This document shows, in pieces, positions 12,921 to 60,600 of a stretch of DNA of 64,000 bases. Position 1 is the stretch's first letter. Each line of letters begins with the position of its first letter. The stretch spans positions 248,001-312,000 of the forward strand of contig NMRA01000190.1 in NCBI GenBank assembly GCA_002633005.1. Direction: 5' to 3'. The notes below the pieces were generated by a model. It was given only the letters and a program-made list of their open reading frames with translations. It was not told the origin of the DNA and searched no databases. The position numbers and the translations under genes were made by a program. Origin of the DNA: Phoronis australis. Taxonomy: Eukaryota; Animalia; Phoronida.

Positions 12921-13349
12921 GCTGTTGTCAGTGTATGTTTCCACAACAAACAGCTCAACTTTGTTTGTCCATCAACAGGTGACACTTCTCAAGGTCACTG
13001 TACTTAAGTGCTCCTCTATCTAATCCAGGGGTTGTGAACATTTCTTATAAGTGCCTGGGGTTTTACCTGGATACTGTTTTACACTCATTTGGTTGTTAAA
13101 GAAACTTTCTCAGGTATAGTTCAGCATTGAAAAAGTGTCCGTCATTTTTCTGAATCAGTCTGGCATGATATTGCTTTTCCTTTCTAATCTTTCCAAATCT
13201 AATATGTCTTTCTATGGACGTTTTCATCATTTGCTCAATACCAGCGTGTCAAATCATTTTGTGTTTATATCCAATCTTTTTACACCTTACTTTGTGTTTG
13301 TCATGCCCATATGTTTGTGCCTATTGAAGAACTTTGGTTTTCTTCGCAG

Positions 13350-13704: not shown

Positions 13705-14051
13705 GTATGTGGAATGTAGTGATGGTAGTTGGACTGTTAGGAAGAATAATGACAATAACTTACACACTAGAGTAGACTGGAGGTCCAACAGTTAATGTTC
13801 AAGGCTTCTGGGCCACTGTGTTCTGCTAGTAATAAGTAAAGATCGAGATGTACACCTGTGTAAGTTCAGTACACTTGTTTGAAAGATTCATCTGTGAAAA
13901 TTGTTTAATTAGTTGTGAAGGCACATGTCAAGCAAGTCCTTAGGGAATTAATTTTTGAATTTTCTTCCTTAACACTTTACTGAGTTTTTGTTGAGAAGAT
14001 GTTTAAGTCAGTGGGTAAACGTCTGTATCTTAAGTTGCATTTCCATTGCAG

Positions 14052-19873: not shown

Positions 19874-19997
19874 CTAAGTACATCCTTTTTTAATCAGAAA
19901 GTCTAGTCTGGCTGCAAAACGGCGCCCTTTCCTGCTAACAACACGTGATGTGGGCCACTCTAAGATGTAACTTTCACCGGTGTCGGTAAGCATTGTT
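19874..19997 (-). CDS. C345C domain 2, terminal exon (TMLTDTGESYILEWP...RLDFLIKKGCT*)
   Basis: cAG phase-2 acceptor, EWP motif, C-terminal GC typical of C3/C4/C5; TAG at 19876-19874. Confidence 0.88.
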
Positions 19998-24594: not shown

Positions 24595-24636
<42 letters not shown>

Positions 24637-33600: not shown

Positions 33601-36600
33601 AAACGTTTTAACTCACGTGGACTAGCTACTAGCATCGTTCGATATACACGCTGGCCCGGGGCCAGTGGATTTGCGGCCGGACCAGTAACTTTTGATGAGC
33701 ACAATTCAGATTACCCAACGGGCTGCAGAGACTCAGACGTTGATGTTTTTCCGGTTGAAACAGTCTTGTCTGGCTCGGAGTAAACATGTGTTGTTGCCAG
33801 TGCAGGTTCACATTATTGAGCGGCATTTACAAAATACGGGGTTTTTACCTTGTGATGGTATGACGTGCGTGACTAAATACAGTTTGGGTTATTCAGAGGA
33901 CAGAAAAACTATATTACTGATGAAACGTGTTTTGCAAAAATATATTGGTTGAAGCCAGTTCCCGGCTTTTATTTCGTATCCACAGCTTAGGTGGTGTTCG
34001 CAAGCGCATGCGCATTTAGTGCACAGGAAAGAAATTGAGAAAAACGTAGTAAAGATGCTAAAACCTGGGCCTCCAAAGTGGCAGCCCTGCCAGCAAATTT
34101 TCAGATTAACTGGGCAGGCGGGCCAGCACACTTATTTGCTGAAGTTCGAACACTAGCTACTAGCTTAATGTTGGATTGGTTGTACTTGATGGACTTATTC
34201 ATTACCGCCGGATCACGTCTGATTGTTTTCCGTTGACGATTTCCCGCTTGAAAGCCAATCAGATGTCTCGGCCGGATGACGCGGCGGAACTCAGCTGGTC
34301 AGATTTACTTCGATAAATCTTTCATACCATTTTGGCCATTTACTACACCATAAATTGGTATGCTTTCGTGTTTTTTCTATCTCGTCCAATATTAACAANG
34401 ACTGTATAAATACCCAGGCACGGGTTTGTGACAGGTTGGATTGGTTGTGCTTGATGGACTTAGCCATTACCGCCGGATCACGTCTGATTGTTTTCCGTTG
34501 ACGATTTCCCGCTTGAAAGCCAATCAGATGTCTCGACCGGATGACGCGGCGGAACTCAGGTGGTCAGATTTACTTCAATAAATCTTTCATACCATTTTGG
34601 CCATTTACTACACCATAAATTGGTATGCTTTCGTGTTTTTTCTATCTCGTCCAATATTAACAACACAGATGTTTCCCGCCATACACCAACACAAGGACAT
34701 ACAATGTCTCCTCTGCCTGAAGTTGCAAGTTGCAGAGATATAGATTGACGTTGTTTTGAATTTTGCTTTCAAAAAAGAACATGAATAAGCACACGTCTTA
34801 ACAAGGAGGTTGTTCAGATCTGTCCCTGAATGTGTATACAGTATGGTATTTTGTGGTTTTACATACACATGCATAGTCATTACCTTTGTCCGGTTGAGCA
34901 AATGGTGTTTTTTGGTTTGGCATGTTTGTTACTGGCATAGTTTTCGATTTCAGCGACTTTCATTTAATTAGGTGCAAAATCTGCCTTTTCACTCCCATTA
35001 GTCGCATACGATCCAGAATCGAACAATCGAGTGCATTATATTGTGGTCAAAAGTCGAACAAGACTTCCTCTGAGTCGAAGTAACGGCTTTTAGCTCGAAA
35101 AGTCCTTTCGGAGCACCTGTCTTTACTCCTCTGTTAATCGCATGCAACAGACATACAAAAAGTTTTGTATGAAAAGTCGGAGCGTGTGAGACTGGGCTTC
35201 ACGCGACGCGATGTCTTGCTTATGGGTAGTACACTTCTCGTTGTTGTCTTCATGCGATATAAACAATGGGGCTATAATTAAATGGTTCAGTCGTTCTAGA
35301 GTTTCCAGTTCGTTAAAAGCAAAACTTTCGTACTTGGTGGAAAAGCAGCAAAGGTTGTATTTTCAACCATGAAGATAGGAGCTAGGGCACGTAACCAATA
35401 AAAAACGACAGAATAAAATTAAATAAATAAAATAATGAACATCTTACCTGATGTCTACAGTCAGCTTAAAGGTGTAGAGACTACGTGATGATCGCTTTGG
35501 TCTTGAAGACCCCAGCTCAGAGCTAGTCTTGCCACATTTTGCCACACCACTACACATGAAAGCAAATAATATGCACGGAGCAGGTGACAATCAAGTTCAC
35601 TGGTGTTGACACACAACATTGTTCGATCAACAGGTTCAATGTACATGTATTCAAGTGGCTGTCAGCTGGATCAAAATTTTTGCTTAACACCGAGTGAAGC
35701 ACAAAGAGACTAGGAAAGGTCAACACAAATTTGTCTTTTTAAGACTCAAAATTTTTACAAAGCATAAGATATCATTATAGCTTGAAAAAGACGCATGATT
35801 TTCTCCTTTTTGTTTCATTCAACATTTGGGAGTTGTCCAACTTTTTATCATGGTCTAAAAATGTTTGGAAGGAAACTAACCACTGTCACTTCTCCCAACT
35901 TAAATTTGTGTCATACCAATGTTTTGTAAACTCTATCTTAATTTAATGAACGCCACCCGATGAACGTAAAAAACGCGTCTTGATGGGCTCAACGCAGGCG
36001 CTCTTTGGATGACCAGCAACTTGGTTACCTTTCAAAGTTCTGCGGAAAATTCCACTCTCTCTCTAAAGCAGCCTTAACACTTGTATTGAAGCGACAACGC
36101 TTGGAGTTTGCAATTGTGTTGTACTTCAAATTCACAGACATCTGGCCAACACCCACACCTTGCGTCGAGATGTTGTATTGTGTGCCATAGGCAAGCTGAA
36201 GAATGAACAACAGTGAGTATACACATTCGACACGCGATAGAGGCTTAAATCTCACTACCCTCTGACACAGCTCCACCTGTACTGAAAAGTGGCCCAGTGG
36301 AAACAGTGATGAACGACACACGGTATTCCGCATGTAGGCATGCATGCTTAGTCGGAAGTTTATCGATCACATCGCCACCATTTGCACACGCTTTCTACGC
36401 ACTTTGATTTTGTTTACTTCGATCTCTGCAACTACTCAAGTCAAAGTCAGTATCCACACTAAGTACGTAACAGTGAACTGAAAGGAGTTTCCCAGATTTC
36501 AACCAATGGGAATGACTGAATGTTATGACGTCGGTTTCATTACTTCAACCAATGAGAAGCCATGATAAACAACAATCCACAGTGCTATCTTTCGTAGCAA

Positions 36601-39600
36601 TGTGAAAGAGTGTAAAATATCACCAGACAATGAAGGTAAACGAATTAAATAAAGGAATTCAGCTTCAATCACGTGCATCTGCAACATACATCAGGTTCTG
36701 TTCCGTCAGGTAGTAGTCTACGTGTACACTAGGCACCGGTCAATATGCAAGCGCAATTTTAAATAGACATACCTCATTGTGAGATAAGACAACAGCGTTT
36801 TCTTTTGTTATGTGGAACTTCAAGACTTCAGCTGAGTCATTCTGACGAATAACGGTGGCATTAAGTTGGATCTCGTGATTGTTCTCAGTCCTACTTGCGT
36901 ACTCTGCAAGTGCTTGTAGAGCCACCACAGTGTCCTATAATACAAAGAAGCCAGTAATTTGTTCCGTTAGACATACTACTATAAAGCTTTAAAGAGTTCT
37001 TGAACAAGAACCTTTCTGCGTGTTGAAATGTGTTAATTCAACGCACACTTTTGGCTAATCAAGGCGCAGTATTAGTTAGTCGGCGTACTGCTCAAGCCGT
37101 TAATTTTTCACCAACTCACAAGAAAAAACTTCTAAACTGATTAACGAACAACTAATTTTATAACAATATGTGGCCTAAATCAAAACTTGTTTTTTGCTGG
37201 GTTTAAATGCCACTTTAACCAAATGGTCCACAGACAAGGCACTCGAACAATAACAGTGTGTTAAAGAAAACATTTGATAACTAAGTTTTTATAAAAGGTT
37301 GTGACTCACCGCATCACAGAACGGCTCTGAGAACACATTTGATACACAAATTAAGTTTTTAAGAAGAGGCTGTGACTCACCGCATTACAGAAGGTGTATT
37401 TGTCAATGCTCACCTTTGCTGATATGAATTCGGAATTGGGGAGACGATTTAGATTCAGCCACCTTACAATCGGCTTTGAGTATTCCATGTCGTTATGACT
37501 TAAAGCTGTCAACAAGGCATATGACGTCATCTCTATCGCGTCCGCAGTCACGCGAGAACCATCGTCTGCGCTCCACCACCTAGTCCAAGTATCTAAACCA
37601 AATAACCCGTGTATTGTAAATTTTGTCATGACCCTGCGACACGAATGGCTCGGAAAGTAGACCAATGTCAATGATGAACAATTATAATCGTCTGGATTTC
37701 AACACTTTTAGTTTTGTTAATTGCGTAAAGCTGCATCTCGCCAGTGCTTAGCTGTCACTTTTTATTACTTTTCTTATACGCTTTGGGTTTAAACAATTTA
37801 CCGAGCTCATTAAATTTTGATCCTTGCAGAATGAGCCGGCACCTCAAATCACAGTCTATGCGTACATGCGCGATTTGGCTAACCCCGAAAACTCTGCAGG
37901 TTTTTTTTTTGGTAACTGGTGGTTTTTAGTGTTCTTAGCCCTATTGCTAAAGGAAATGTAACCCTGTCACTGTAAGGAATAGGTCTAACATGAGACCGTT
38001 TTTGTGACAGTAAACGGCATAATTCGACTTTCATTTTTCAGCCAGCTAAACGAGGCAAAATTAAATAAATGTAGTGAAATCTTCGTAGTCATCACTGGAA
38101 TGACTAAGACAAACTGTTGAGTCCCTCGTAAAAATACCTAAGCTGAAATACCGAATAGCATTACGTTACGTGATTTTAGTGTCTGTTTAAAGATTTCCCT
38201 TTGGTGTTCAATGTCTGATGCTCTAAAAGCTTTAAGAGGCATGGAAAGCGAAAGCTCGTCAAAAATATCTTTTTTATCCTGACGAAAATACCATCTCGTA
38301 ACGTCTAGTACAGAGTAATTCACTTTCCCTGTGAGTAACTTTTGAGAAAAAATCATAAAATTCGCGATTTTTGAAATACGCGCGAAGGAAAAACTCTGTG
38401 GTTACCACAGAGTTTCTAATGTTCCACCCACTTATGATAAATGCGCACATGCGTTCACAACCAGTTGCTTGCAGTCGCTTGAGATCAAAGGTCACATTTT
38501 CCACATATAAGGGAAATGCGCTACGTCTATGTCTTCCCATACCAAATAAGGAGACATGCTTTGCTTTCGGGAAGAAAATCGACGAAGTGGCGAACAGTTG
38601 ACAAACCGCTTTTTGAAATTTGAAACTAAAAGAACTTTTGGGGAGGAAATCGACGAAGTGGCGAACAGTTGACAAACCGCTTTTTGAAATTTGAAACTAA
38701 AAGAAAATGCTTTGATATCAACAGAAATTATAAGCAAACCCTAAAAATACCTGGTGAGCAGGTTGAATTCTGTTTCAGTGGCAGATAACCACTTTTTGAA
38801 CTGCAATTTATTCTGTTTCTCGCGTTCCAGGCTTCTTTAAGGACTTTCCACTTTAATTTTCTAATGGAAACATCACAAAAATGATAAAAAAGACAAATGA
38901 AGAAATGCACGGAGCTATCATGACAATCTTGTAAGCAAAGTAAGAGAACTAAATAATTTTTAGAAAAAATTCGTAGAAGATGCGACTGGGCGTGGTTGCT
39001 CAGTCACCGCTAGTCTAGTTCTAGCCTCTATCGCCCGACCAGCTTCGTGAAAGTCAAAAATACAGTTAAGTTTATGACTGCATTGACTTTCCTATTTGGA
39101 CAGTCACGACAGCCGGCTAATTGTCGCTTCATTGCTCCGTATTTACTACGAAGTAATCGCATAATATCAACATGAAAATAAAAGTATAAGAGATAAAGTG
39201 TGAGGAGCAGACCAAGCGGAGTCCTTGTTGGGATGGTAGCCTTCGTTAAATTACTCGACATCATTTCAATGACCAATCTTGGGTCAGATTAGTTCGTAGC
39301 AGTCCAGTCTCTGCTACGAATACTATTTTAAGTAGCGCTTCGTATAAGCACCTGAATCAAATCTGGCGCTATCTTTAAGAACGCAGTACGCGTATTCTCC
39401 CAATAAGCTGTGCGAAAGTTTCAGTGCGTAGGCGACGACTGCTGGCAATCCAGAATGGGTAGTTATTTTCATTTCCTCTTCAAGATAGGACATTGCCATG
39501 TGCAGAGATGCCTGATGGTCACAGGAGGAAGGAACTTCTGCTATGGAAACAGCGACTAATGCCGTCAACGCCAACGTCGTGGTCATCCTCTGAAAGTCAA

Positions 39601-42600
39601 TGAGTTGTTAGGAAGAAATTTCCCGAAAAATGAAAGTTAAAGGAAGTTGCCGTGTTATGTTTTAAGTCACATTTGAAAATTCGTTTGCCTAATACATGGC
39701 AGCATATCAAATGCCTGAAAAATAAGTTCAAAATCTCTGCTCCCACTTTCTCTTGTCAACAAATTGTAAGTGTACGCTGTATCGGATTTTTAAATTTAGA
39801 CACCTGTTATAACAGAGTATGATTGAAAAAACATAATTTTAGGGAATTTTGACAAGATCAAAGTATCTTGTCGGATTTTTACTCAATTAGTTCATTACGT
39901 TCTCAGTGGAGTTTGACAATTTTCCATCTTCACTGAAACTTCCATCTTTTCTCTGTTTCGACAGTAGCCACAAGATGGCGTCGCATATGACGTCATTCTC
40001 AACCATTGCACCAAGCTCATGCGAAAGAGCAAGTACTTTATGCGCCACTGCTGTCAACCTTGGAATTAGAAATAAAGATCCATCAATAACAAGGTACCTA
40101 AAGTACAGGGTCAACGAACTCATAAGCACGGGCACACGGACGCATGAACACGACTCACGGACCTGCAAACACCGTCCACTGACTCACAAACACGGGAACG
40201 GACTCACAAAACACGATCCACGCACCCAAATACACGGGACACGGACTCATATTCACGACGAAACACTGTTAACGGACCGCCAAACACGGGTCGCGGACTC
40301 ATCGGCTCCCTGGGTCAGCTGACATCTTCATTTTGTCGGTGACCCGTGTTTGGCGGTCCTTTTACCGTGTTTCCTCGTGAAAATGAGTCCGTGTCCCGTG
40401 TAGTTGTGTACGTGGATCGTGTTTTTTTGAGTCCGTTCCCGTGTTTGTGAGTCAGTGGACGGTGTTTGCAGGTCCATGAGTCGTGTTTATGAGTCCGTTG
40501 ACCGTGTACTTTAGGTACCTTGAATAACAGTTACTTTCATAAAATCTAATAATATCAACGGGTATTGAAATGCTGGACAAGCAAAATTTATTTTGGATAC
40601 TTGAAGTCCCCCGTAACTAGATATATGAATGGGCTTGTCAATTCCAAGGCAGCCGGACCAGCCGCTCATGAACTTTGATCACTGGAAATAAAAGTGTTAG
40701 TACTGGATGTGCACTGACAAAGCGCAAGTGTATAAGATAACTTATGAAAGAACAAATTACATGTAGCTGCATTGAGGCGTCCAATCCGTACGGCAATCGG
40801 CAGCAAGCGTAACATTTATTCAACACACTCAAGGATGATGTTAGGAGCCCCTCTCACATCATTGACGCATAAAAAATTCACTGTGATTACTTAACTCTGA
40901 CCTACGGGCGCACTAAAACTAGTGACAATTTCGTCTGATTTTGTTAGCGCGTTGCATTCAGAATCTAATACAGCTACAATTCAGAGAGATTGAATCTACC
41001 CACTGACACCCACCATCCCCACCCCCACTCCAAAATCGAATCCAAAATGGTCAGAAATTCGACTAACGCCAACTATAGGTCCTAAAACTCTTAAGTTAAT
41101 GTGGGTCAATTGACTCGTAGCCCCGTTTTTCTAAATTCTTCGCTGTTCATATGCAACTGTGCAGGCAATCCATCTGTCGATGTATACAAGACCCGAGCTA
41201 TACGAGAATTATAGGTAAAGTAACACATGACACGGGTTGTGCGCTGAACATCCGAAATACTCATTCACTTTGGAGACAAATTNTTAGGTACCTTGAATAA
41301 CACTTGCTTTCATAAAATCTAATAATATCAACGGGTTCTCCGGTATTGAAATGCTGGGCAAGCCTGAGCAAAATTTATTTTGGATACTTGAAGTCCCCCC
41401 GTAACTAGATATATGAAGGGGCTTGTCAATTCCAAGGCAGCCGGACCAGCCGTTCATGAACTTTGATCACTGGAAATAAAAGTGTTAGTACTGGATGTGC
41501 ACTGACAAAGCGCAAGTGTATAAGATAACTTATGAAAGAACAAATTAGCTGAATTGAGGCGTCCAATCCGTACGGCAATCGGCAGCAAGCGTAACATTTA
41601 TTCAACACACTCAAGGATGATGTTAGGAGCCCCTCTCACATCATTGACGCATAAAAAATTCACTGTGATTGCTTAACTCTCACCTACGGGCGCACTAAAA
41701 CTAGTGACAATTTCGTCTGATTTTGTTAGCGCGTTGCATTCAGAATCTAATACAGCTACAATTCAGAGAGATTGAATCTACCCACTGACACCCACCATCC
41801 CCACCCCCACTCCAAAATCGAATCCAAAATGGTCAGAAATTCGACTAACGCCAACTATAGGTCCTAAAACTCTTAAGTTAATGTGGGTCAATTGACTCGT
41901 AGCCCCGTTTTTCTAAATTCTTCGCTGTTCATATGCAACTGTGCAGGCAATCCATCTGTCGATGTATACAAGACCCGAGCTATACGAGAATTATAGGTAA
42001 AGTAACACATGACACGGGTTGTGCGCTGAACATCCAAAATACTCATTCACTTTGGAGACAAATTTTGTCTACACCTCCTTCGCCTTTCTTTGAAATACGT
42101 TCTCTCGTCTGATCAAATTCAGGGAATTGAGTTGAAATTATTTTTTGAGAATCTCGTGCAGATTTCGAATTTGTGTGTTGCTATCCATGTTTTTATTGTT
42201 TTGCTTGAATGTCTGGCTGAAATGCTGACATCGTAGACAACAGTATATGGACCGCCAACTCTGTATATTTTCACAAAATCCGTGACACAACCACCAAGAC
42301 GTCATTATTCATTAGTGGCACTGGCACCGTAAGTCGTCTCGTTGGTTCCCTGGGTGTAGAAAACACGCAGGTATCATGTAGCACGCGCTTTATCACTGCT
42401 TGATGTAATCTCGACAGTCATTGGTTATCTTTACAGGAAAGAAAGAAAATGGTGGTTTGTGAACGATTTTAGCCTCGTCATGCAAGTGGCGTTTCTGCGG
42501 TAATGTTTTATAGCCATGTGCATATATACAATAAACACACACCTGGCCGATATAACTGGTGTGTTATTCATACTGTGTGAATACAGGACAGCAACGGAAA

Positions 42601-45600
42601 CAAATGTCAGTGACAGTAGAAAGATGCACTCCGAAAAGGTGCAACCACAATTTTCTGGGATTCACATTTCTTGAACATGAGTTAAGCACCGAGTTGTCTG
42701 TGCAACAGACCACATTTGCACTTCCTCCATCAGTCATGCCAGTTTGTTTGCGCAAAGCGCTACCTGTTGAGAATTCGACCAGCCAATCACAAACGCCGGT
42801 GTAAAAAATTTCCTGATGAAAATTAAAAGATACTTGGGCATTCTCTACCACCTAGCGACACGCAAGAAACCAGCGAGCGTACGTCGTCTGCTCACCAACT
42901 GGAAGCTGATGTGCATTGGAACAGAGTGGCGCCTCTTCTGGGAATTCCATAAACACATGTCGGATTTGGGAATCTGTTGTCTATGATATATACTAGCGCT
43001 CGAGTGGTTTGTTTTGAGTCTCCATTTTCCAAAAAATAATGGAGATCCGTGGATTACTTTGTTAGTTATTTCTTGGAAACCAGATTGGATGACAAAACAA
43101 ACATCGATCGGAAAAACCCAAACCTTTCGGTCATACTGCATACAGACCGTGCCGCCCCCAATGGCCGGTCTTAACACTAACCATGAAAGAAAACACGTTA
43201 CAATGAACTTATTCCGCAGTAGTCACAAAGCCTACGAACGTTCTTATTCTCAATTTGGAATACAGTGTGCCTCGATTGTATTTTACTTTAGAGATTACAT
43301 AAAACTCACCATACATTTCCAGGATTTCCCTCAAAAACTGAAAAGCTGCCATCTTCATTGCGAAATTTCAGAATGTCGTTGTAACCTAATTGAGAAATTA
43401 AGATTGATAGGAGCCTACAACAAAATTAAGAAGCAACCTGGAATGGGTACTTGTACAATCGGTGCTGCGCCAATCTACGTATTTTCTACCAATTTAAGTT
43501 TTCTACTTTCTCGCTTTAGCGGAAAGTCACCGGTTCCGTACCAGTTATCATTGTCGTATCACGTTTTTGCCGCCAAACTACGTTTGCTTGCCACGCAAAA
43601 GAGTGATTACTTTTAGCGACTTCAGACGGCGATTACAGAAAACATAGCGAAATGTCGAACAGACGACCCCGAGAGCATTTTTCACTTTTTTGACATGTTG
43701 ATGTAAATTTTAGCCCTCCCAAATAATGTGATCAGACGACAAGTACAGCAAATAAGTAAACCGATGGTAGCTCATTCTTATCTCTTTGTATAGTGCAATT
43801 TCTGGTTGCCAAAACCCGTGCCAAATATTTTCAGCCCTCGTGTTTGAAACTAGGTCAGTGTCACGAGTGTCGTACCACAACAGTCGCGGGTATGGTTGTT
43901 AATAGCAGGCTGTCTGATACACGTTGTACCAGACGGGCGCAGGCCTGGCATGTAGGCCCACGGGTATGGTACCCGGGGTACAGTACACTTAAGAGGTATG
44001 ATACAAAACGTGATATAAGTAGGTACTGTATAGGGTAATGTGTTGTTTTTCTTGCTTCTAGGAAAATGCCATCGCCGTCGTCGTGGACATTGGAAGATAT
44101 GCACAGATGTCTCAAAGCTATGGACGAAGGGTTGGGATTAACGCTGTTTCTGAGCTATTTGGTTTCCCAAAGCCAACTATCGCCATCACCGCATGGGTCT
44201 GCATAAGTACGCAAAACATGGTACCAAGTTACGCGGAAGTCCCAGAGTTTTGCCTATAAAAGTAAAAGATGATTTGGTGAAACATATAAAAGTTCTTGGC
44301 AATTTTTTTCTTTGGTATCACGCCAAAAGACCTTATGAAACCTGCATATCAATTGGCTAAATCCCATGACATCCATAAATTTAGCGAAAAAAAACAGTCT
44401 GCCAATAAAACCTGGCACTACAGCTTTATGAGACGACATCCAGACCTCAGTTTACCAGAAACAGTGATGCTGGCCACTACGAAGCTTTAAAGAACGCAGT
44501 TGCTCCTCGACAAAATAAACGAGTGTCCGACCTCTCTCCACTACCAAATGCATAAAATACAATGCGTCGCTCGCGTCATTCGGCGACTCAGCCACGAATA
44601 CTAACCAAAAACCCGTATAAAAGCAAACTAGAAAGAAGAGCTGGTGCGCGACAAAAGAAACTTAGTAAACAGGCGAGGAAAGCTCTGAAAAAGCCCAAAG
44701 CCTGGAAAAGAAAATTCCATGAAGATGTTAGTTCGTTAGATAGCAAAGCTGACGACACGTTTTGGATAGTATGCTTGTACAAAACGAGCAAATCTGGCGA
44801 GGATCGAGTGGGTCGAATGTGTTCCTTGTAAACGATAAGCTCACACGGAATGCACTGCGGGGGTTGTTTTATGTTTGTCATGCTTGTTATTCCGACGGAG
44901 ACACTGATTAACGTCCAGTTTAAGTTTGTCACATTAGTACAGTTGACTGATCCATTTTGTTATCTTTGTGCTGATTTGTGATGTTTGTGGTGATTTGTTA
45001 GCACAGATTTAAGAAGACGGCGGTTCGCATTCGGGTCATAAGGAAACGTTGTTTGTTCTCATATGTTTCTATGTTGCCAATAAAAGGTTTGACTGTGTGC
45101 ACTGTTTCTTTTTTCATCATTGATTTGGTAAAATATTCATAGTCATTAGTATAGCAGCTCTGTTACGATTCTGATGTCTGAAAGGTACGAATTAGAAAAC
45201 CGGTCACGTGAATGGTACTTTTATTGACTTTTCTATAACCGTGTTTTGCAGCAAAAGCCGCGTTATCATTGTTCTTCTGAATCACATGTGTGGTTGTACG
45301 TGTGAAGCCACTAAGGGCCATGAGACGTACAGAGAGGCGCATCCTTTTGTGGTACGAAACCAGTAACTTTCCCATACATGTCACAGAATTTAACTCTTTG
45401 ACTTCGACTTCACATATCGAAACCAAAAATTCGTTAAATTACGAAAAGTAAACAAGCAGTGTTTTGACATTTTACAAAATTTTCCTTGCTGCGAGTTATT
45501 TTGTGACAAGCTTGCAGATTTTTGTTTGGGGATCTTAAAACGAGGCCGTTCTGGTTGTTCAGTGAATGAACAATTAAGGCCCAAAAATGAGTTACTTTTC

Positions 45601-48600
45601 AGAAAACATTCATTAGAAGAAATGAAAGTCAGTGATAAATGTAACAAACAAGCGAACAATTTGCGACCCTATTAAAAGGAAATAAACGATTATTGATCTG
45701 CCCACCTGATAGAATTAAGTCGGCTGCTTTTCCTGGTGATTCATGAGTAAGTCTGCCGGTCTTCTTCAGGTATAACGTTGCATAAGTTGTCGAAGCTAAT
45801 TTTGTGATCACTTGCAGCCCGTTGTCTGACGGCAGGTGTTGCAGGTTGTAGACTCTATCTATGGCATGGCGAACAGAATTCCCCAGTACAGTTCCTGTAA
45901 AATTATTTGTATAGTCAAGAGAGTGATGGTGTACCCACCATGCAGTTCCATAATCTAATAAAGTCAATGTAAGTCCCTAGAAGAGTCTTAACACTACAAG
46001 CAATCCACAGTGAGGTGTTACTCCTTGGGACGTAAGGTAAAGTGCGTATTTCTTAGGCATGGTAATTTTGACTCCGGACTCTTCGGAGGGCTCTTTGACT
46101 ATTGCTGCATCTCTTATTAAATGCGTTTGGGCATGGTCAAACTTGTGTGCTGTAAGGGTTGAAATTATCTGCAAGCTAGCAGATGAAAATTGTGGGGGAT
46201 TGAATTTGGTGGCGACCTATGACGGAGCAGTTGGTGTATATACATGTAGGTGGAGCTACACTCACAATTTCTGTCTTAAGGTAGTACTGCGTGGGCTAAT
46301 ATCGAAAAACACATTTTGCCTGAATTTCAGAAATTGAATTGTGAACCGTTGAATGCAAGTCCAGTCGTTCTTACCTATGACACTGACGGTTGAATGGACT
46401 GAGTCGGGCACAGCCTCCACTGGTGGGACAAGATCAATATGATGGGATTCAGCAGGTCTTGTTGTGGTTACATGGGGCAACGACTCTGTTCTGAGATTGG
46501 CTACATTGTGGACTAGAAGCTCGCCGTTGGGGTCAAGTATGATGTTATATGTGTCGACAACGGGTTCTCCCTCCGGCTACAATGAAAGATAAAATTCTAG
46601 CTTCCGGAAGCTACTTCACGTTAAAAGGGCAAACAATAATCTAAAGTCACGCAAACCAAAGTAGATGAAATATCATTTCAAACGATGCACTTTCAACATG
46701 TTCTCGATTTCTAACAGAAATTTATCGCAGGCCGTCGGAGGTTTCAAGTCGGCATGACAATATGAGGATTGAAATTTACCAAATGGTTTTATAACGATAT
46801 CATCGCCGGACATTTGCCGTTAGGAAGGAAAGGTAAACTCAAAATATATTTTCATCTGCAGTTTTCCTTGAGAATCCGACAGCCACAAAACAATCATTAT
46901 GTGAGGAACACTACATTTTTCAAAAAGTGAACAATTAACAAGCACACTAATGAACATTACACAAGCACTTGTTCTTACAATAACATTGAGCCATTTCAGT
47001 ACTCGGTCAGACAAATCCAGGCTTATGGATGTTGCAATTACTTCTATCGCGTGTTCTCCTATTTCTAGAGGTGCGATAGGGAAAGAAATGACTTCGCTGT
47101 CGTGGCTGGGTAGCCATACTTGCAGGTAATCGCTTGGTTCACCTGCTTTTAACTTGGCACAAACTCCAAGTCCTACTTGGATATGAACTGAAACCTAAAA
47201 ATGATTTTTATCAGAATTATAGTGAAAACACATTTTCAAGTAAACAGAAACTCTAAACGTCAGCTCATGTCGACGCCTATCAGCGGTAAAACTAAATACA
47301 GTAAACTTTACTTAAAACAATTTCTGACATCAAAACGAGGGGAGTGTTTTATTTGACAGTTAATTACATTGCTGCGTGGCTATGACGTCACTGGAATCAG
47401 ACAACAGCCAAAAACTCAAAGGCAAGACTGTAGTGTTCGAATAATTATTCAAAGTTGGATTAATTAAAAGTAACTTACTGGCAAAATTTTGTTTGCATAA
47501 TTGAATAGTGTGACCTTGAGTTCAACTTGTTCCTGTCGTATTATAGAAAACGGTAGTGACAGCTGAATGAAAAATTCAGTGAAAACTGTAGTGTTTACAG
47601 GCTTGGCCACGCACAAACTTTGTCTTCTATTGACACCAATGGCTTGTACACTCCAAGTTGTGATGGAGTCTGGTGCTGTCGCCCGATAGGTGGCCGCTCC
47701 GTCGGCACTATAAAAAATCGACTCGTCTCATTATTGAAGTACGGCTCAGACACTTAAAGGTATTTATGTGATGATTATCACAAGATCAGAAGCACTACTG
47801 CACAAACAGACTGAGGTTGTCAGACTTATACCTAGGCAAACACAATAGAAGGGTCCCCTCAACTACGTAATGCGCGCGCATGCAGGCCGACGGCTAAAAT
47901 GAGGCTGGGGCTTGTTTTATCAAAGTTCGAGACCAGACCGGTCGTAGCTAATGAGATCGTTGGCAGGTTACTGCGCAGAGGGCTGCATTTTTGCATGAAA
48001 AAAAACTATTCTTAACGTAAACTTGACCGTAATAATAATAACACCCAAAATGAACGTCCACCTCATAAACCATGGTGATGAATTGTTTGGAAATCATGAT
48101 GCGACCATTTGCTCTAAGACCGTCAGTACGACGTCTTTTGTCAAGTAAATTAACAATAGTAAAGTACCGAGTATATTCTTGAAGTTGAAACAAGGTACAA
48201 ATAATTGCAATCTCGTTCATTCCCACATAACCTCTAATTTTGGTATATAACTACCCGCTAAATCATTGCACCTGGCAGGAAATAAAGTCATTCTTAGCGA
48301 TGAAACGTCTAACAGTCAACTACAGAGACAAATGTGCCAACGCATGGCCCGTCTTTTGTGACTGTGGTGGAATGACGTCACTGGACGAGCCGTCTATTAG
48401 AATGCGCTGTTAGTCAACTGTTGCTATGGCCAAAACATGTTCCGCTTTCATGTATTGTGTTAGAGCATATTTTCACCTTTTGGTGCTCAATTCTTCAAAA
48501 AGGAAGTCGAAACAAATGTGCAATTGGTGCATCGTGGTGATCCCTTAACTGGTGCCTGCAAAGTGCCTTGATCACGTGACATGTAGCACTTCAAACGAAT

Positions 48601-51600
48601 GTAATAATTTAGACCAGATGTTGGCGTAACTTGTGTACCATTTTATTTCTCTCAGTGTTGAAACTAAGTAATTCCACGAGTGGTGATCTTAACCCCAACC
48701 AAATTCTTACTCCATGTTGCTGTACTGTAAAAAATAGAGAAAGAAAGCCTCATAGCCTTGATGATTCCATAGCCCCCCTCCCCCCGTCCCCACCGTTACA
48801 TACAGAACTATTGAGGAATTCATTTCAACTACTCTACCGAGAGGCAGACTTAAAAGAATCTCCACCATAAACACAGCAATTTGAACGGATACTCGATTAC
48901 TCGAAAAACATTTCTTGTAACTGGAAAAGATGCTCTGGGATTGACCATCTGAGATACGAAAGACTCCAGGCTTAGACCCAATGTATAAACACCTAGGGGA
49001 AGCTCATGGAATATCGCATTAGACAGACAATTAATGTTTTGACTAAAGTGCACAGCATTCTCACGTTCTAAATCTTGGGTACATCAGATGTTTGCATGGT
49101 ATTTGGCAGGCCTCACAGTGCACGTTCGCCTACTTATTCCGTAGATAACTTTGAAAGAAACGACTTTAATTACGCCCACGCAGATAAACGAATATCCATT
49201 GAACTGTTGAGAAACACGTGTAGGAGAAACGATTCATACCCGGTATCAACTTCGTCGAATATCCAAACCTCATCAAAATTATGTCGCGTGGGAATTATGC
49301 TTTTAATTTCTTCAAGCTTCGGATTGGTTTCAAAGACGTAAGCAACCGATACACTTCGTGTAGGCTCAGTACGTTTTGGAGGATCCAATGGACGATGTGC
49401 TGGATAATTTGGTTGATGATGCGAAGAATATCGTTTCATTTGGCAGCATTTCAAGTACATGGTCCTACAAGAAGCCTTGACGCCCCGCAGTTCATGACCA
49501 ATTCCTTTGATACAAGGCATAAAGAGAGTCCACTGACCCCCGAGCCGGCAGCACGTCTCATCCGTCAAAGTCTCGTTGTCAGCGAGAGACTTTTTCTGCC
49601 TGCCATCCGTTCGCTTTTTTCGTGGTGTCGGCGAATGATGATAGCATTCGTAACGTGGCCTGGTCGAGAGTGGAAAGTTGTCTGCATTTGTCAGTACACT
49701 AAATCCTGTGGTCTGAAAAGTAACGACCAAACATCACAATAAGTCCCTGAATGAAGAAGAAGCCTGCCGAATACAGTTTAAAAGTGAGTGCTGGGAAATT
49801 ATTAAAAACAGAATAAAAAGAAACATGTAACTAAAAATGATATCACTGCACATCAGCGGAAGGAATACTTCGATTCCCTATCAAATTTAGTTGTTCATTA
49901 TTGGACGAAGAATTTGCCGCCCAGTAACGAATTGCATGACAGACAATGCAACCAAATTTTTGATAATAACACGGATCTGAATAAACCAATAATAGAAAAC
50001 GAAGTCAACAATACATTTAAATGTATTAACAATAACAAGGCCACTGGCATAGATGGAGTAGATACACAAAAAGGCAAGTCATGACGATTTAGGCATATCG
50101 TTTTAAATATATTAAACAAATTATTTTTCAATAAAACTAATAGCAGGCTGGTTGAGTGGGTGACCGATGCAAAAAGTCTGTATGAAGAGAAGGCTGCATT
50201 TAAAAAATCATACAGCACAATTGACCAGATATTTACCCTAAATGCACTGGTATAGAAATACTTAAGTAAGAAAAAGGGTAAATGATATGCTACTTTTGTA
50301 GATTTTAAAAAGACGTTTGGTAGTGTAAAATTCAGATTCTTATTCTATAAACTTATCAGTGCTGGTTTTCATGGTAACATATTAAAAGTAGTCCAATCAA
50401 TGTACGAAAAATTAGAATCTTGTGTACGAGTGGATAATACTCACAGAACACGCTTCTTTAAAGAGGAAATTGCAAGGTCCAAACCAATCTTAACAACGAT
50501 ATGGTCCAAATTCTTGTTTCTTATAAATTGCTATATTCTTAATATTAACTGAATTGTTCGTCGATATACAAAGTTATTTACATATATAGTGCCGCGGTGT
50601 TGTAACGCCATTGCTGTAACGGAAAAACAGAAACGGCGCCATTTTCGTTCGTTACACATGGGTGACGTGGTGTACGGGAACACAAAGGAAGCAAGTGTAT
50701 CCAAGTGAGCAGCAGCGTAGATGAGGAATACTTTGAAAGATACTGGGATGGACAAGTGGCCTTTTCAGATAATTCCGACCTTTCGGACGTGGAGGAGGAG
50801 TTGATAGAACCCATAGGAACAATTTCAGCCGATTTCATAAAGGTGGTTTAACAAAACCAGGTTTAAGACTTAAACCTGGGCCCGGTTTCTAATCTTTGTA
50901 CTCGAAACGAACTCGAAACTATTTTTGGCAATTTCTCTGCTCCTTTTGTGCGAACTTAAGATAATTGGTTATCAGACTGTGCTCGAATACATTATAAGTT
51001 TATGCATAGGAGTTTCTAGTTCAAGTTCGCCCTTGAAGGCCCTTATATTCGTGCTACAAACTCGAGTAAAAACTCGAAATTTCGAGTTCAAACTCGAACT
51101 TATTGCTTTAATATTGGGTTTACAAACTGTGAACTAAGGGCAATAAATTATCTACGTAAGTTATTGTGTACTCGAGCATAGAATAATAGACACTTATCTT
51201 GAGTTCGCCCAAAAGTAGAGTAGAAAATGCCAAACCTAATTTCGAGTTCCATTTCGAGTAAAAAGATTGGAGACCGGGCCCTGGNGACGTGGTGTACGGG
51301 AACACAAAGGAAGCAAGTGTATCCAAGTGAGTACAGCAGCGTAGATGAGGAATACTTTGAAAGATACTGGGATGGACAAGTGGCCTTTTCAGATGATTCC
51401 GACCTTTCGGACGTGGAGGAGGAGGAGTTGATAGAACCCACAGGAACAATTTCAGCCGATTTCATAAAGGTGGTTTAACAAAACCAGGTTTAAGACTTAA
51501 ACCTGGTCTAATTTTAGACCTAACTTGTATTTCACCAACATAGTGGTATAAACGTCTGAAAGCCTGGCTCCCATTCAGTAATGCTAGGACCTCGCTAAAA

Positions 51601-54600
51601 AGCAAGACTTCGCGAGATTACGTGAGATATTGCCATGTATTTTAAATGAGCACGTGACTTTGATTAGATTTTAGCTAGGTCATAGCGTAGGTCCTAGCGT
51701 CTACTGTACGCACGCCTGATTTTGTTAGACCAGGGAACCGGTTTAGTAAAAGCAGGTTTAAAGTATCTAAGCCACCCTGCTGCGTCGATCTGGATTAACC
51801 CAACAAAGAAACTATTGAAGTGCTTCAATGAAACCTTGATCACGTGGGTATGCAATGGCACGCACTAGTATAATCAGTGCAGACACTTGCGAAAAAGGTC
51901 TAAAAGCTTTTCTCATGAGGAAAAATGTAATGTCTGTGCCCAACACACGTACACATTAAAGTACATGCTCACGATTAGCCGCAACATGATACATGTCCGA
52001 ATTAATTTCCGTGCCATTTTAGTGTTTATTTTTCGCTGCCAAGGGGGGCCAAGACCGCTCCCCGGCGACATTAAATCGGAGACCAATGGATGTGGAACTC
52101 AGAAAAATTAGAACATGGTGTCTTCAGTCAAACACGTAGCGCTTACGACGGCGACACCCTGCTCGACCAGTCGTATTCTCAGGAATCCGTAGGACACCAT
52201 CCAGCACGTACTGGTCTACACATAGGCGGATCCAAGGGGGTCAAGGCACCGGACCCCCTTAGTGATATCAATTCTATAACTTTCAAATTGTTGACTTGGT
52301 CCCCCCTTTAAAAAATTCCTTGACCGACCCTCCCCCTTGAAAATCGTGGATCCGCTCCTTCTACGTTTGATCTTGTGTCGTAAAACTGCGCGAATAGTGG
52401 CAGAATTACATACAGCAGCGTAGTTTAATGTGCACAAATCACACGTCGTGCAAACAAATCGGCCATTTCATATACTGTAAGTTTATCAATCCCAATAGGC
52501 TTTACGCACCCTAATTTCCGGACATGCGCAATCGTTAAACCCATTCGGTTGCAACTCCGCTATTCCACGACAAGCTAGGTTGTTAGAGAACTAAATTACG
52601 TTGGATTTAGGAATCTTTTAGTTTGCAGTAGCATTGGGTGGATATATGTTTGAGCCCGAGTATAGTGAGGCAAAATGAAGACAGCTGTTGAGAGGGATGA
52701 GGCAGGGACTGAGGACAGACGTGGTGGGACATTTTGGTACAAATGCAAGGTGTGCACTCAATGGAATGCCTATGCTGTTCTCACTGGATGGTGACCTGAG
52801 CACCCAAATCGCTTACATCCTGCCGTGTGACTCCCTCGCGCCACACCTGGCACCTTTTAAATAGCTCCAATACTTTAGTCAAGTCCACAATAAACTTAGC
52901 CTGTATTCACTACCACTACTCAACATCGCTGCAGGGTTGCTTAGAGTCGGACAACACCAACACAGAGCAAATCAGTGTTAGTTCCCGGAATTGCACGCTC
53001 TGGGGTACGTTCAGAGGCGTGGGTGACAGTAGATGAAGCGCCTCCAGTCACTGTACAGGCCATATCTCGCTAGGCCACTCGCTTCAAAAATGCACTTCTC
53101 GGGGGGGTGGCGAAGGGGCACTTCTGGGAATCAACAACAACAGTATGGCACCCTTCTTCAGGGGTCAATTTGGAGGAACCTTCACCGATTCTACGTACAA
53201 TTACCTCTTTCGTAATCCAACGACAGCAAATGCTTGCCACACACTCGGTAATTCTCTACTGTTTTGTACGTTGTGTGGACGATAACACTGCGTTCGTCAC
53301 ACGAACGAGCCAAATACGGCGGAGCGTGTCATCTTTCGGAAAGCGGTATACACCGCGGTAGGCAGCAACCGTGCGGCATGTTGACTGACTCGTAAACAAA
53401 CGCAAACTACAACCGAACTTATCGCAACCGAGATAAAACAATGACTAGAAAGTTCACGTAGTTAGACCATATGAAAACAAATGGCAGGAAATTCATAACC
53501 CCCTAAACGTCACATCCGGAGTAAAGCACGACTAATTAATAGAATTAATAGAAGCCGTTATCAACTGAAAAATATGTCTGCCAGGGATAAACAACGAACG
53601 GTATTTTTACTAAAATTGACATGAAAATGGTTGCTTTCTCCTTTAAATTCAAGTGACGTTCATGAAGATGTACTTCATTTTAATCAAAACACAGATCCAG
53701 AGCATGTATTTAAGCCAGTATGGTTATAGCGCTTAACTTTAAATCAGAACAGGAGACTGCAATTTTAGAACATGCACAGACATAGTTAAATTTAAGCGAG
53801 ATTTATGTTTTAGTTTCAGGCCAGAATAGGAGATGGAGATTTTAGAACTTGTACAGATGCGCTAACATTAAGACGGCGTTTCTGTTACTTACATTTGTGC
53901 ATTTAGTTAGATTTTACTGAAATTGTTACAATATACCGCGCTACTTGCAGTTGTTTTATTATCTAAACGAGCTTATAAAATCGTGACTTTGAACCAAAAT
54001 AGAAAAACTTAAATTTTCAGGAGAACCGGACATCATTTACAAAAAGGGATAGCGGTCGTCTACGGGATCACCGCTCGAAGTTGGTGAACAGTCTTTCCAA
54101 AACTTCATTTTTGTAGCGTTTCGAGCAGACAGATCATTTATCAGATGCGAGTAAACAGGTTAGCATCTGTCAAAAATCAATAGCCAGCTTACCGTTGTCC
54201 AGAAAATCGTCTACCTGACAATTAAAAATATTAACATGCCCTCAGAAATGGCTTTGGCATTATATCCAGATCTCATTCACTTCCTAGCATACCTTCACTT
54301 GGACCGAGCTCAGAGGAGTAAGAGACACCTGATACTTTCTGGATTCTGGATTGGATGATTCGTATCCCACAAATATACTCTCTGGGATGCGCTCGAATCC
54401 ATTCACCTCTTCATATTAAAAGACAATTGGTTCCTTACCCAAAATGCCATGTCGCTGCTGTTGCCACCAGTACTTCCGCATCCGGTATCAAATGACATCA
54501 TTGCGTTGTACAGCACAGTCGGCGCTAATTGGTCTCCTTTTCCCAACAAGTGAACAGCCTGATCTACGGCGAGTAATGCGACTCGAGTGTGTGGCTTTGC

Positions 54601-57600
54601 CGCGATTTTAATCGTCACGAAATCCTGAGGTCTGTACAATTCTTTGTCAAACTCTACTGTCACCTTGAATAGGATATAACGCTTTATAGTGTTGTGTACA
54701 TAATCATTCAGAACATGGTGTTTACAACATTAACAAATTAATTTGCATAACTTAAGAGAAAGATTATTTTCAAGAAGTGATCACTTAAAAGGTAGCCCTT
54801 CTCTCAAAAAATATTTCAGACAAGCGACTAGAAACTGAATTTGTGACGCTCGTTATACAGCGATCTTGCCTGTGGTGCGTTTCGTAGAGTAAGTGCGTCG
54901 CTAATGAAGCGAGACTAAGTGTGACAGGTGAGTGTTTCTCGAGAAAACTTAAGACCTTGCTACCATACACACATATAATGTACAATTGATTGGTTAGTGA
55001 GACTGGAATATTGAATTAGGGGGAAAGAATGTACAGTTTTCGGTCCCTGTGACTATGCCTCTTAATGATTTCGGATACTATCCTCAAAAACCCTAGTCCA
55101 TACCCCATCAATATCGAGTCTTGTCCACACACGCGCCTCAACTGCTTCATACTCGGTGACCAAATTCCATACTCTGGGACCAAATTAAAAGACCCGTTCC
55201 TGGGTGTGGGTGAGAATTCAAAATTATTTTCGACTGAAGGTGGGCATATAGAACATTTAACAGATTTCTGACAAGAACCAAGTTAAAGAAGTCATCCTTA
55301 AAAACTGTTTAAATCACAAATATATCTTGAACAATAATCACTTGGTAGTGGTCATTATTTGTTATCCACAAACCTCGTTTTCACAGCCGTCTATTACGTC
55401 AATGAATATTGAATCAGCGACAACTTCGTTTTCGTAGACGTAGAAGACCAGAAGACGAAAACCAGGCGACATTGAAGAATCCACGTGTAGTTCAAGTGTG
55501 TAATTGGAATAAATGTTATTGCTAATGGAATAATTGTATAAATTGTCCGAGACGGTTTTAACAAGATAAAACATCTTTGATACTTTCTCTGGTTTGTTGA
55601 AAAGGATATCAACTTGCACGTCCGATCCAATCTGAAACAATATTGAAAACGTGCTGCACACCTATTGTAGTTCCAAGGATATGTAGACTAATATGTAAGC
55701 AAGTATTAAGGAACATGTAAAATTTATTGTTCAAACTAATTCTCCATAAGTACCAGCTCGTACTTAAAGACGGATTCGCCGTAATAAGTTCGCCAAAAAG
55801 AATTGCACTTCCGGGAATTTTTGTTCTGTGTACCCCGTTACAACGTGCTTCTGAGCTCGCTCATCCATTTTTTCCCGAAACACCGTTCACCATGAACGCT
55901 TTTTTGTCTCGCTTTATCAATCCAACCACATCCTAGACGCCGAGAACGCGTCCATGCAAAGCACAAAATAGTGAGTAAAACTTGAAGGAAAAATGTTTTG
56001 CGTTTAAGAGTGCCCCTTAAGAGGACTAGGTTCGAGGAGGAACTTTTGATTGTGGGTGTTATTTCGGAGAAGTTCATTTAATTTTTGGCACTATTGTTCG
56101 TTGTAGTTTCTGGTCAAATGCCGTGGTGCACTTTTGTCTCGTATGCTCCCTTAAATGTTTCTCTATACTTCTTGAAGTTGTCCCGGGCGCATTAACAGAA
56201 ATTCCTGCCATGGATAGTTCCGACAAGTGCTGTTAGGCCACGCCAGCCATAGCTACAGTTGTGAAGTCCCACAACCACAAAGCAAACAGGGCGGAAGTTC
56301 CCCTGCACACGTACGAATACTATAACAAAGGGTTCTTCTTTTCGATGTGTTCCCATGGACATTTCGACATCGAATCGCAAAATCGCAAAGCTTCCTGGCA
56401 AAAAATAGACTGCTACATCAGAGGTTTGTCCATGATTCTAAATCTTTGATCTCATTCCTGGATTACTGGCCCGTTCATGGTTTCATCAATAAACAATATC
56501 ATCGAGAAATGTGATTTCCCGAATCTTCGCGGTCTGCTGACAGAGCTGAACCCCAATATTTATACAGGATACAAAATATTTAGTGCACAATGGGTACCTT
56601 CCACATTCCCCCATAACTGCTGAGTTAGAACAAGACCTGTTTAATCGTTTAGAAAACTTGATATGCACAGTTTCTCTGCCATAACACAAAGAGAGGTTAA
56701 TCAGGACATCTCGTATTTTTACAATTAGCAGAGGCTGATTTATTTAGCTTGACTAAACTACGTTTTAGTAGCTTTGATGCGTAATTTTTCTAAATTAGAG
56801 GAGCACAGAACCATAGCGCTTGCAAACGATAAGGAGTTAATCTTTGGCACTTGCTGTCTGAGGTACATTGCTATTAATAGGGCTTTTTGTTGACAATTGA
56901 TTCAAGAATTGTCATGCAACCCTGACAGGCCTCAACAGTTAAAAACCAAAAAACTACGTAAATCCGTCTCAAGTTTTCGCCGCAGATAGGACGAAGTAAG
57001 CTGAAGGTTTTACCGCGCAAATCAATAGGTTCCAATCTACGAAACAGTAAGTTATGAGGAATGCCATTGAATGCTTTTGAGAAACCAATAAACGCGAAAT
57101 AAAAACTACCCTATGTACTCAAATATTTATCGCACAAAGCTTGAACCATAAACACTCGTTTTGTGGCAGAGTATATCTTTTTATTAAGATAAAGAGAGAC
57201 TCAAAAAGTTTACCGTTAATTTCAGCCCAAAAATTTAGTCAAAAATTTTCCAAAAGCCAACACCAGGGACATTCCTGCATAGTTATTATCATTTTTGCCA
57301 TTAGCTTGTTTGTGAAATGGAGTAAGCACTGCGTCACACTAAGTTTGGGGATAACACCTAGAATAAAAAATTCCATTAAATAGTTAATGCAACATTGGCG
57401 CTATCGTTACTTAGTGCACTTAGGCATTTTAAAAACTCACCTCATGATAACTATCGGCCTTGTCATCAGGCAATTGTTCAATAGTAACACATATTTCAGA
57501 TAACAGAAAGCACTGCTAAGATCAGATTGGTACATATCACTTATTATTATAACTGTCACTTTGCAGTCTACCGTAGTCACTCTAACACTGTCGTAGCGTT

Positions 57601-60600
57601 AGACGCAGCAATGTCGAACCAAGTGTCTATTCTCTTTCCCAGTGGTGGGAGAGGTAGCACAATGACAGGTTCATGTACTGTGACTTTTCAGTGATGAACA
57701 GAATGAAGTAACACGTAGAGACTGTAATTTGGTGGAAAACACCGCCGAGCTGTCCGATTAAGAAATAGTAATTCCTACACGCGGAGGTGTGCCTGTCGGT
57801 CATGATCTGTTCAAACTACCACTCCATTCCATAGAGGGCGCTGTGACGGAGCGCAACCATACGTAACAAACCATGCGTAAACGAAATGGTCCAGGAGCAA
57901 GCTGAAGAACTTAATGGTTGTGTTGCATAACATCATTTTTAATTACCTTGAGTGGTCACGGAAAGTGTCGTATCGTTTCTATTAGGACCAACATGATAAT
58001 ATGCCCAAGTTTTGATTAACCCGTTGCACTGCATCTCTCAGACACCATGGCCAAATCTAGTTACCGGAGATATGTCTCATAATTTTAGTCCATCGGAATG
58101 ACGTCAATTTCGTTCCATTTTGAGGTTCACTATCACTTGAAAGTGTTATGAGACACTTTGTTAAGATGTCTCGACCATTTTTACTTACGGAAACTGGTTC
58201 TTCTTGTTTGATTGACGCCATGACGTAGCTTCCGCTTGGCGAAAACTCACGTGATACAAATACTTCACTGATGCCATGCTTTAACCTCACCTGTAGTGAA
58301 TAAGGAAACAGCGAGTAATGCTCTGTCTCCACACTACGATTTTTCCATACGACTTGGTATACAAGTGTCGCATACGACTGGTGTGTAGACCTGTGTTACG
58401 ACACGATTTCGGAGCTTAAGGTCGTACGAAATCGGCGACAATCGGGATGTGTACAAAATGAATCAAAAGTTACATACGAAATCGTATAGGAGAAATCAGA
58501 ATGTTTAGACAGGGCTTAAGAAAGATAGGCAAGGTAGACCTGTGTATACACTACGAATAGTCGTAGAACATTGTATTTACTTTGTATACGACAGCCTGAG
58601 CATGCAGACACTCGTATACAAGCCACATACTATCACGTTATTACACGGCAAATACTGTTTAAGTCAACTTTATAGTCTCTTGTCACAGTATATGACTTCT
58701 GCTCAATCAAACGAAGGTCGTGACAAAATTGGACGTGCTCTATTACTTTTAGAACACCAGTATACAAGAACCAATCGGATGCCTTAAACGGTTCATCCAG
58801 CGAAGCAGCGACGTCAATGAAATGCAGTCATTGAGTGCAGAATTAAATAAGTGGTCTGTGTTGAAAAGAAGACGTCAAACAAATCTAAAACTGAAATGAA
58901 TGACATGATTAAACTCATACCATCATGTAAGATGCTAAAATTGTTGAACAACGACGTGCCCAACGTAATGCAGCAATATCAATTTCTTTCTGTGAATCAC
59001 ATTTAAAGTTATGTCCAACCCTAGGTTCTTGCTTCACTTGTTTCGTTCGACAATATATCTCACCGTTAGTTGAATCAAGGAAGTGTCTGCCATTGGCTTA
59101 ATGCCTGCTTCAATACGCCCCCTCTGGTCTGTTACTGCCTGTCTGATATCCGGTTGTACAAAGCTTCCGTTCTCGGTCAACAACAATATTATTATCATCA
59201 CGTCAATTCCAGTTGCGGGTTTTCCGTTAACCTTAGTTATGTCTATCTGGAATAGGAAGAAATAATGATATCAAGTATGCAGAAGACATTGCAGGATACG
59301 CGTTTGCCTGAACAGAGATAGAGTGCATCTGTAAGTGGAGGCACACAGTCTTAGCACGTGACAACAATAAAGTTGATTTGCTGTAAAATGACTCATTGTG
59401 GATTAAGACTCTTCCTGCTGAGATGTCCTTGAACAGGAATATCACTTCATTCCAATTAGAGCAACAGATGTTGGACTCATACATTTGGATGGACTTTGGA
59501 CTATATTATTACTACAAATGTTTTTTGCGTTCGTCATGTTATTCCTTATTAAACATTGTTTGGTAAACGAGGCACTTTGTCAGAGCTCCAGCAAAAATTA
59601 AGGTCCAGGACAATTTAGGGTTCAGAATATAAATTGTAAAAGACTGGCTGAAAGCTAATTAGCGTGGCTCCTACCTTTGCTGTGTATGGAAGTCCAGGTT
59701 TGAAAAATGAACGTGATCTCGACATGTTGACATTATAGGGATTCGCAACGAACTGGCATTCGATTGTTTTTGCAACCTCCTCTGTCCCCGATTTCGTTTC
59801 TGTGACTGTAGCTTCAACGAAAAGTCGAGCACCGGAAATAAACCAAAAATCCGTGCCCAGCACTTCGATGTCGCGAGAAGGAAACTTCACCTCGTGGTGT
59901 GAGGGTCCAATCTAAATTATAATCAAAATGAGAATTTTACCAGTCATCACTGTTCATAGCTGCATTAATGTAGTATTGTGAACTTGTCTATTCAAATTTA
60001 CACCATGTGACAAGTCTTATACGCATCAATTGCAGGTAAATTTCTTCACTCATCAAATACAAAGTTTTCTCATTGGGTGAACACAGATTTCGTGAGATTT
60101 TTTAAAAGAAGCTTCAAAAATCATAACGTCCTAAAACCGCATTGGTGTGGTGATGGAAGGATGCCATCACTAAAATCTCAAGAGACGTTGGTGTAATTAA
60201 ACTAGCAAATTTAAAAAATGAAGTTTTAAAACAAAAGTCAATGAGTGGAAAACTGAATTATGTGAAGCAATACTTGTCATTTTTCGAGTACGATTGCTAA
60301 TTTCAAGTAAAATTGTTTCCTGATAAACTGAAGTAAGGGACAGTGACACCAAAAGTTATTATAAAGTAACATGTTATTTAAGTCAAAATGCATAAATCTA
60401 TTCTTGGTAAAGAAGGGGTTGTCGCGCTTCGAACGCTCGGTGTGAAAGCCTTCTTTGAACGGGTTTTTGCATTGAATTAGTTCAAGCAAGGTTTTAGGAA
60501 TGCATGAAAGCACAATTTTAACTCTCAAACATGGACCCGTCAAATAATAAGTATATAAGTGGTCTTTTCGCGCCATGTTACGTCGCCAACGGCAGCAGCT

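Follow-up and report, generated by a model that had tools for sequence, protein, structure and literature searches.

A complement C3-type gene of Phoronis australis with DNGLQ at the thioester site and a doubled C345C domain

Does a C3-type gene of Phoronis australis truly lack the thioester motif, and what could its product still do? An earlier note on this DNA had claimed that GCGEQ is replaced by DNGLQ. We analysed the window, meaning the whole 64-kb stretch of DNA, and its letters bear the claim out: positions 45812-45826 read TTGCAGCCCGTTGTC, and the reverse complement, GAC AAC GGG CTG CAA, encodes DNGLQ. The strand, which that note did not give, is minus.

Loss of the thioester site

The features on which this section turns are the following.

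45812..45826, minus strand: DNGLQ in place of the thioester motif GCGEQ (translation, alignment, codon comparison)
45706..45894, minus strand: first TED exon, in which the motif lies; phase 1-1; RNA of minus orientation in runs X1 and X2
39899..39922, minus strand: catalytic-His region KLSNSTEN, with Asn in the His column (alignment)

The motif exon (45894 to 45706) is 189 nt long; by the splice check it is bounded by AG and GT and has phase 1 at either end. It reads ...NLQHLPS-DNGLQ-VITKLASTTYATLYLKKTG... in an open frame, and the gene around it also looks intact, in line with the claim that the exon is otherwise undamaged. Alignment to TED profiles, which the earlier note had proposed, gave a match to positions 7-65 of Pfam TED_complement PF07678 (E 9.3e-06; 25.4 bits against a cut-off of 22 bits), and the best ESM Atlas matches of the exon are TED clusters (0.94). 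A PDB sequence search with the exon returned mostly chance matches, and word-index searches for homologues came back empty when single exons were the queries, which is weak evidence. When this protein is aligned with 65 long homologues (66 rows in all), DNGLQ falls in the column of GCGEQ with no gap. Conversion of any GCGEQ codons to DNGLQ requires a minimum of 1+2+0+2+0 = 5 base changes; a single sequencing error is thus ruled out as its source, and the claim of several substitutions holds.

DNGLQ contains no Cys, and therefore a Cys-Gln thioester cannot form, as the earlier note had argued from what is established chemistry (PMC5489563, in part). Beyond that note, the catalytic His is also lost. 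Its column holds His in 26 of 65 homologues, more often than any other residue, and Asn in this protein, in a locally gapped part of the alignment. Both parts of the thioester chemistry of a canonical C3, the CxEQ motif and the catalytic His, are thus gone, and the two losses sit in different exons.

The earlier note had named two findings that would speak against it. One, TGT or TGC at this place in reads, has no counterpart in the window letters; the other was an alternative GCGEQ exon. Such an exon is rejected for the window DNA, where six-frame translation contains eight CxEQ strings, none of them in a TED context. Only one ORF in the window matches the motif region of the homologue profile, and the absence of any N between 41283 and 51285 means that nothing is hidden between the flanking exons at 46375 and 43385.

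The motif exon is transcribed, at low expression. Among three raw RNA runs with the same species label (X1, X2 and X3), two cover it at low depth in minus-strand orientation. In the bin 45426-46076 the depth is 1.58 in X1 and 1.9 in X2, with all first mates on the plus strand, which fits RNA from the minus strand. Exon-bearing bins across 45426-48000 have depths of 0.8-1.9 in these two runs (one X1 bin is 0), X2 reaches a depth of 12 beside 45756, inside the motif exon, and X3 has no coverage over 45426-48000. A paralogue of at least 90% identity could contribute to this coverage. Among the best 15 of 55 RNA joints, no spliced junction of the C3-like gene was found.

Gene model and domain order

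Judged by its sequence, the gene is of the complement C3/C4/C5 type (C3 family) and lies on the minus strand. The model comprises 28 exons from 62971 to 19874 (4623 nt), obtained from a profile of 19 close homologues, manual reading and splice checks. It is in frame without internal stops and translates as 1164 + 375 aa, and all introns are AG/GT with matching phases. The domain order is MG3 to MG6, LNK, ANATO, MG6b-7, CUB, TED, CUB, MG8, C345C. In-order profile matches thus follow the C3/C4/C5 order MG-LNK-ANATO-CUB-TED-MG8, with MG1-2 lying outside the window and one exon of MG8 missing from the model.

54439..62971, minus strand: six beta-chain exons, approximately MG3-MG6a/LNK (62971-62875, 59911-59675, 59246-59064, 58290-58189, 55631-55374, 54663-54439)
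49240..49712, minus strand: LNK/ANATO exon with the beta-alpha furin site, the ANATO domain and a candidate activation site
46375..47707, minus strand: MG6b-MG7 and CUB exons (47707-47479, 47194-46979, 46576-46375)
37414..43385, minus strand: remaining TED exons (43385-43310, 40058-39899, 39589-39352, 37592-37414)
35448..36934, minus strand: exons for the end of TED, CUB and the alpha-gamma linker (36934-36773, 36195-36029, 35549-35448)
30019..35447, minus strand: interval in which one MG8 exon (about 48 aa, phase 2 to 0) is expected
29496..30018, minus strand: MG8/anchor exons (30018-29913, 29591-29496)

The placement of exon 58290-58189 rests on its phase and a short motif and not on the profile. 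No 5' end, with signal peptide and MG1-2, turned up in the 64-kb window; it presumably lies beyond position 64000. The tetrabasic beta-alpha furin site RKKR is retained at 49622-49611, followed by a six-Cys anaphylatoxin domain at about 49556-49440, whose cysteines align as CC-C-C-CC; a Pfam search of this exon gave no match. We would guess at EPTR|S, at 49367-49356, as a candidate activation site. A furin-type site of the alpha-gamma type, RPKR, lies before MG8 at 35503-35492. Exon 47707-47479 matches Pfam A2M (E 1.4e-23), and a PDB search with the MG6-7 exon ranks C3 over C4 over C5, well ahead of CD109/A2M.

The closest proteins to the gene (from Ptychodera, from Lingula and a Logan protein) are 32-33% identical to it. 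When 2% of sites were substituted at random, a divergence far below that from these homologues, the frame stayed open in 2 of 400 trials, an argument that is partly circular because exon boundaries were partly picked to keep frames open. Identity to canonical C3s is 36-38% in TED (46-51% among canonical C3s) and 31-32% in MG3-6 (36-45% among canonical C3s); on these figures TED appears eroded no more than the rest of the protein.

Neither profile, local alignment nor splice-site scan found the expected MG8 exon in 30019-35447, with nothing above background. Single Ns at 32687 and 34399 within the interval look like assembly joins. No tandem overlap flanks the N at 32687, and the short stretch after it recurs behind the N at 34399; the N at 32687 may hide an unfilled gap with MG8 sequence. 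Were the gene really to lack the exon, a frame shift would result, since the donor at 35448 has phase 2 and the acceptor at 30018 phase 0. Elsewhere, near-tandem duplicates of 96-97% identity at 5353-7092, 40511-42064, 34170-34663 and 50661-51506 adjoin the single Ns 6233, 41283, 34399 and 51285, and are likely two haplotypes overlapped at scaffold joins.

Several other features share the window. A TTC17 gene exon at 13120-13716 (plus strand) is convergent with the C3-like gene; its closest named matches are from Lingula (58%) and Haliotis (49-51%; 7 matches). Self-complementary elements of about 400 bp, which we take to be MITE-like, lie at 40127-40506, 61250-61644 and 50872-51284, the latter two being related, and RNA reads have strand-switch joints between about 40135 and 40482. 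A dispersed repeat is present in inverted orientation at 22862-23406 and 38234-38840 (74-82%); the second copy contains a 71-bp tandem unit at 38564-38705 and has heavy RNA coverage, by reads that stem from other copies. Degraded reverse-transcriptase-like remnants occupy introns at 49901-50549 and 56877-57110, with a weak RVT_1 match (E 0.037) for 50286-50549 only.

Two C345C copies at the C terminus

The 3' part of the gene holds the C345C domain twice, a duplication that the earlier note did not mention.

24207..27297, minus strand: C345C copy A (exons 27297-27181, 25922-25839, 24916-24766, 24298-24207), with a strong phase-1 donor at its end
19874..22729, minus strand: C345C copy B (exons 22729-22607, 22285-22202, 21913-21763, 19997-19874, the last with the stop)

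Each copy consists of four exons, with matching intron phases and lengths of 117/123, 84/84 and 151/151 nt for the first three. The copies are identical at 56 of 149 residues (38%; score 222, compared with at most -12 after shuffling), and both keep their cysteines. A custom C345C profile matches both (E 3.7e-12 and 1.4e-13); the Pfam NTR match is weak (E 0.13) and falls on one single exon only. The custom profile matches 46 of the 66 sequences, twice only in this protein and in none of the 45 other homologues. This architecture had no match among the homologues or in the non-subscription literature searched. A haplotype duplicate created by assembly is rejected as the origin of the copies, given their 38% amino acid identity and the lack of an exon DNA match in self-BLAST, a comparison in which haplotype overlaps in this window are about 96% alike. 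In copy A, exons three and four are separated by an intron with a long AAT/GAT trinucleotide microsatellite at 24340-24700.

The donor of the last copy A exon ranks within the highest 0.08% of positions by score, and its phase fits copy B. Copy A is followed by neither AATAAA nor ATTAAA, and an AATAAA follows the copy B stop, at 19760. This combination favours tandem splicing, and on these signals both copies are likely spliced in tandem. A stop lies three codons past the copy A donor and skipping copy A also keeps the phase, so that alternative single-domain forms are possible. We see even odds that the product is a C3 of three chains, with no thioester and with two C345C domains that are spliced in tandem or switched as alternative modules.

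In mammals, the C-terminal carboxylate of the C345C domain of C3b/C4b chelates Mg2+ at the MIDAS of factor B/C2 (PMC12847986, in part). Since the C345C C-terminus is the factor B/C2 contact, a tandem copy would shift this contact, and the protein would be less likely to serve in a normal convertase; an effect of the duplication on convertase formation is plausible. If so, the factor B docking site would be uncoupled or redirected, leaving a lineage-specific non-covalent effector with a new C-terminal interaction surface.

Relatives and predicted role

No homologue proved to be an orthologue; identity on the best-conserved exon reached 53% at most. In trees calculated without the motif columns (FastTree with 39 of the 66 rows, and a quick LG+G4 tree with 15 of 66), the protein forms a long branch (1.3-1.5) with no supported sister in either. 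AU tests on the 15 rows rejected a clade with the two named C5 (p-AU 0.0024), and with it orthology to vertebrate C5, as well as a grouping with the thioester-less C3 of the tick Ornithodoros (p-AU 0.0088). Not rejected were clades with the gastropod thioester-less type (p-AU 0.056), Lingula + P0004 (0.32), Tubulanus (0.49) and a CD109 row (0.37). The earlier note had contrasted DNGLQ with the GSAEA of vertebrate C5 and suggested convergent loss. GSAEA is indeed seen in a named marsupial C5 (P0120), and the AU result supports, at the level of sequence, a thioester loss separate from that of C5; independence from the gastropod loss is only suggested.

CxEQ is absent in 12 of the 63 homologues that cover the site (among the 65 long ones), including the named C5s, Patella, Haliotis, Ornithodoros, a catfish protein and a frog protein; another such row is a Saccoglossus model that looks truncated. 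P0001 and P0002 each contain two A2M/TED units and two GCGEQ motifs, from tandem fusion or a gene-model merge. Thioester loss in C3-like genes has occurred independently and many times in cnidarians, protostomes and invertebrate deuterostomes (PMC8960428, in part), and TEP6, C5 and ovostatin are family members with a mutated motif (PMC5489563, in part). Motif loss as such is therefore an already known evolutionary pattern, known in molluscs and ticks. No brachiopod or phoronid is among the species surveyed in PMC8960428 (in part), and no description of a brachiopod or phoronid C3 was found in the literature searched, which was that outside subscription.

The canonical C3s of Lingula anatina (P0030) and Ptychodera flava (P0010), the closest named proteins, share the domain order of the gene, but keep GCGEQ and His and have one C345C each. 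Drosophila TEP6/Mcr, on the insect TEP branch and not the complement branch, is, like the product of this gene, a thioester-family protein without a functional motif. TEP6/Mcr is still active in immunity (PMC5489563, in part). Vertebrate C5 also lacks the thioester, keeps ANATO and works by non-covalent binding; the present gene differs in its separate loss, different motif, predicted third chain and doubled C345C. The gastropod type I C3-like proteins (Patella P0042, Haliotis P0052) also have neither CxEQ nor the catalytic His, but have lost ANATO and the alpha-beta site (PMC8960428, in part), both of which are kept here, and they are not joined to this gene in either free tree. With ScoC3-like-3 of the razor clam and other thioester-less invertebrate C3-like proteins, the gene shares the C3 domain set, a degenerate thioester, the beta-alpha site and the six-Cys ANATO domain (PMC8960428, in part). 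It differs from ScoC3-like-3 in having DNGLQ without Cys instead of GCVSQ, an RPKR site that predicts three chains instead of two, and two C345C domains. ScoC3-like-3 undergoes cleavage; no a-subunit was more chemotactic than that of ScoC3-like-3, and its b-subunit lacks haemolytic activity (PMC8960428, in part).

Taken together, the motif loss, the open frames of the model, a TED conserved at the general rate, the RNA, the precedent of ScoC3-like-3 and the C345C-MIDAS contact lead us to favour a C5-like, non-covalent anaphylatoxin donor as the probable role. Furin cuts at RKKR and RPKR would yield three chains, and protease activation would then release an anaphylatoxin-like signal. The large fragment would bind partners non-covalently, without opsonisation, like C5 or razor clam C3-like-3. 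We infer secretion, processing, activation at the candidate site, chemotactic activity and tandem C345C splicing, and the gene itself would have arisen as a rapidly evolving paralogue alongside a canonical C3.

A non-covalent scaffold or opsonin, likened to fly TEP6/Mcr or a fluid-phase convertase scaffold, is a less likely role, to which we would give perhaps a quarter of our belief. Its b-fragment would bind to microbes or to a protease like factor B, the doubled C345C would serve as a new binding surface, and the a-fragment would play a secondary part. The C345C copies, which have kept their cysteines while diverging, both seem maintained, TED is no more eroded than its surroundings, and thioester-less TEP6/Mcr binds Candida and promotes phagocytosis (PMC5489563, in part). 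However, the only b-fragment of a thioester-less C3-like protein to have been tested showed no haemolytic activity (PMC8960428, in part), and an ANATO domain that is still intact suggests that a signal is released.

A recently disabled or decaying paralogue (an expressed pseudogene) with one MG8 exon lost would account for the failed search for that exon, the long branch and the low expression; it is improbable, as 28 exons are open with canonical sites, the exons downstream are intact and the N at 32687 looks like an assembly gap. The assembly does have single-N joins, but that DNGLQ is an assembly artefact, or that a GCGEQ exon hidden in a gap is spliced in instead, is very improbable in view of the five base changes needed, the separate loss of His in another exon, the N-free stretch that includes the flanking exons and the RNA over the motif exon.

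With the C5-like donor as the preferred reading, the gene would be another, probably independent, C3 duplicate that gave up covalent opsonisation and kept its anaphylatoxin module. The same route produced vertebrate C5, and since the pattern is already published, the gain on this point is modest. The doubled C345C is the unusual part: a natural tandem version would test how fixed the geometry is by which the convertase protease is anchored.
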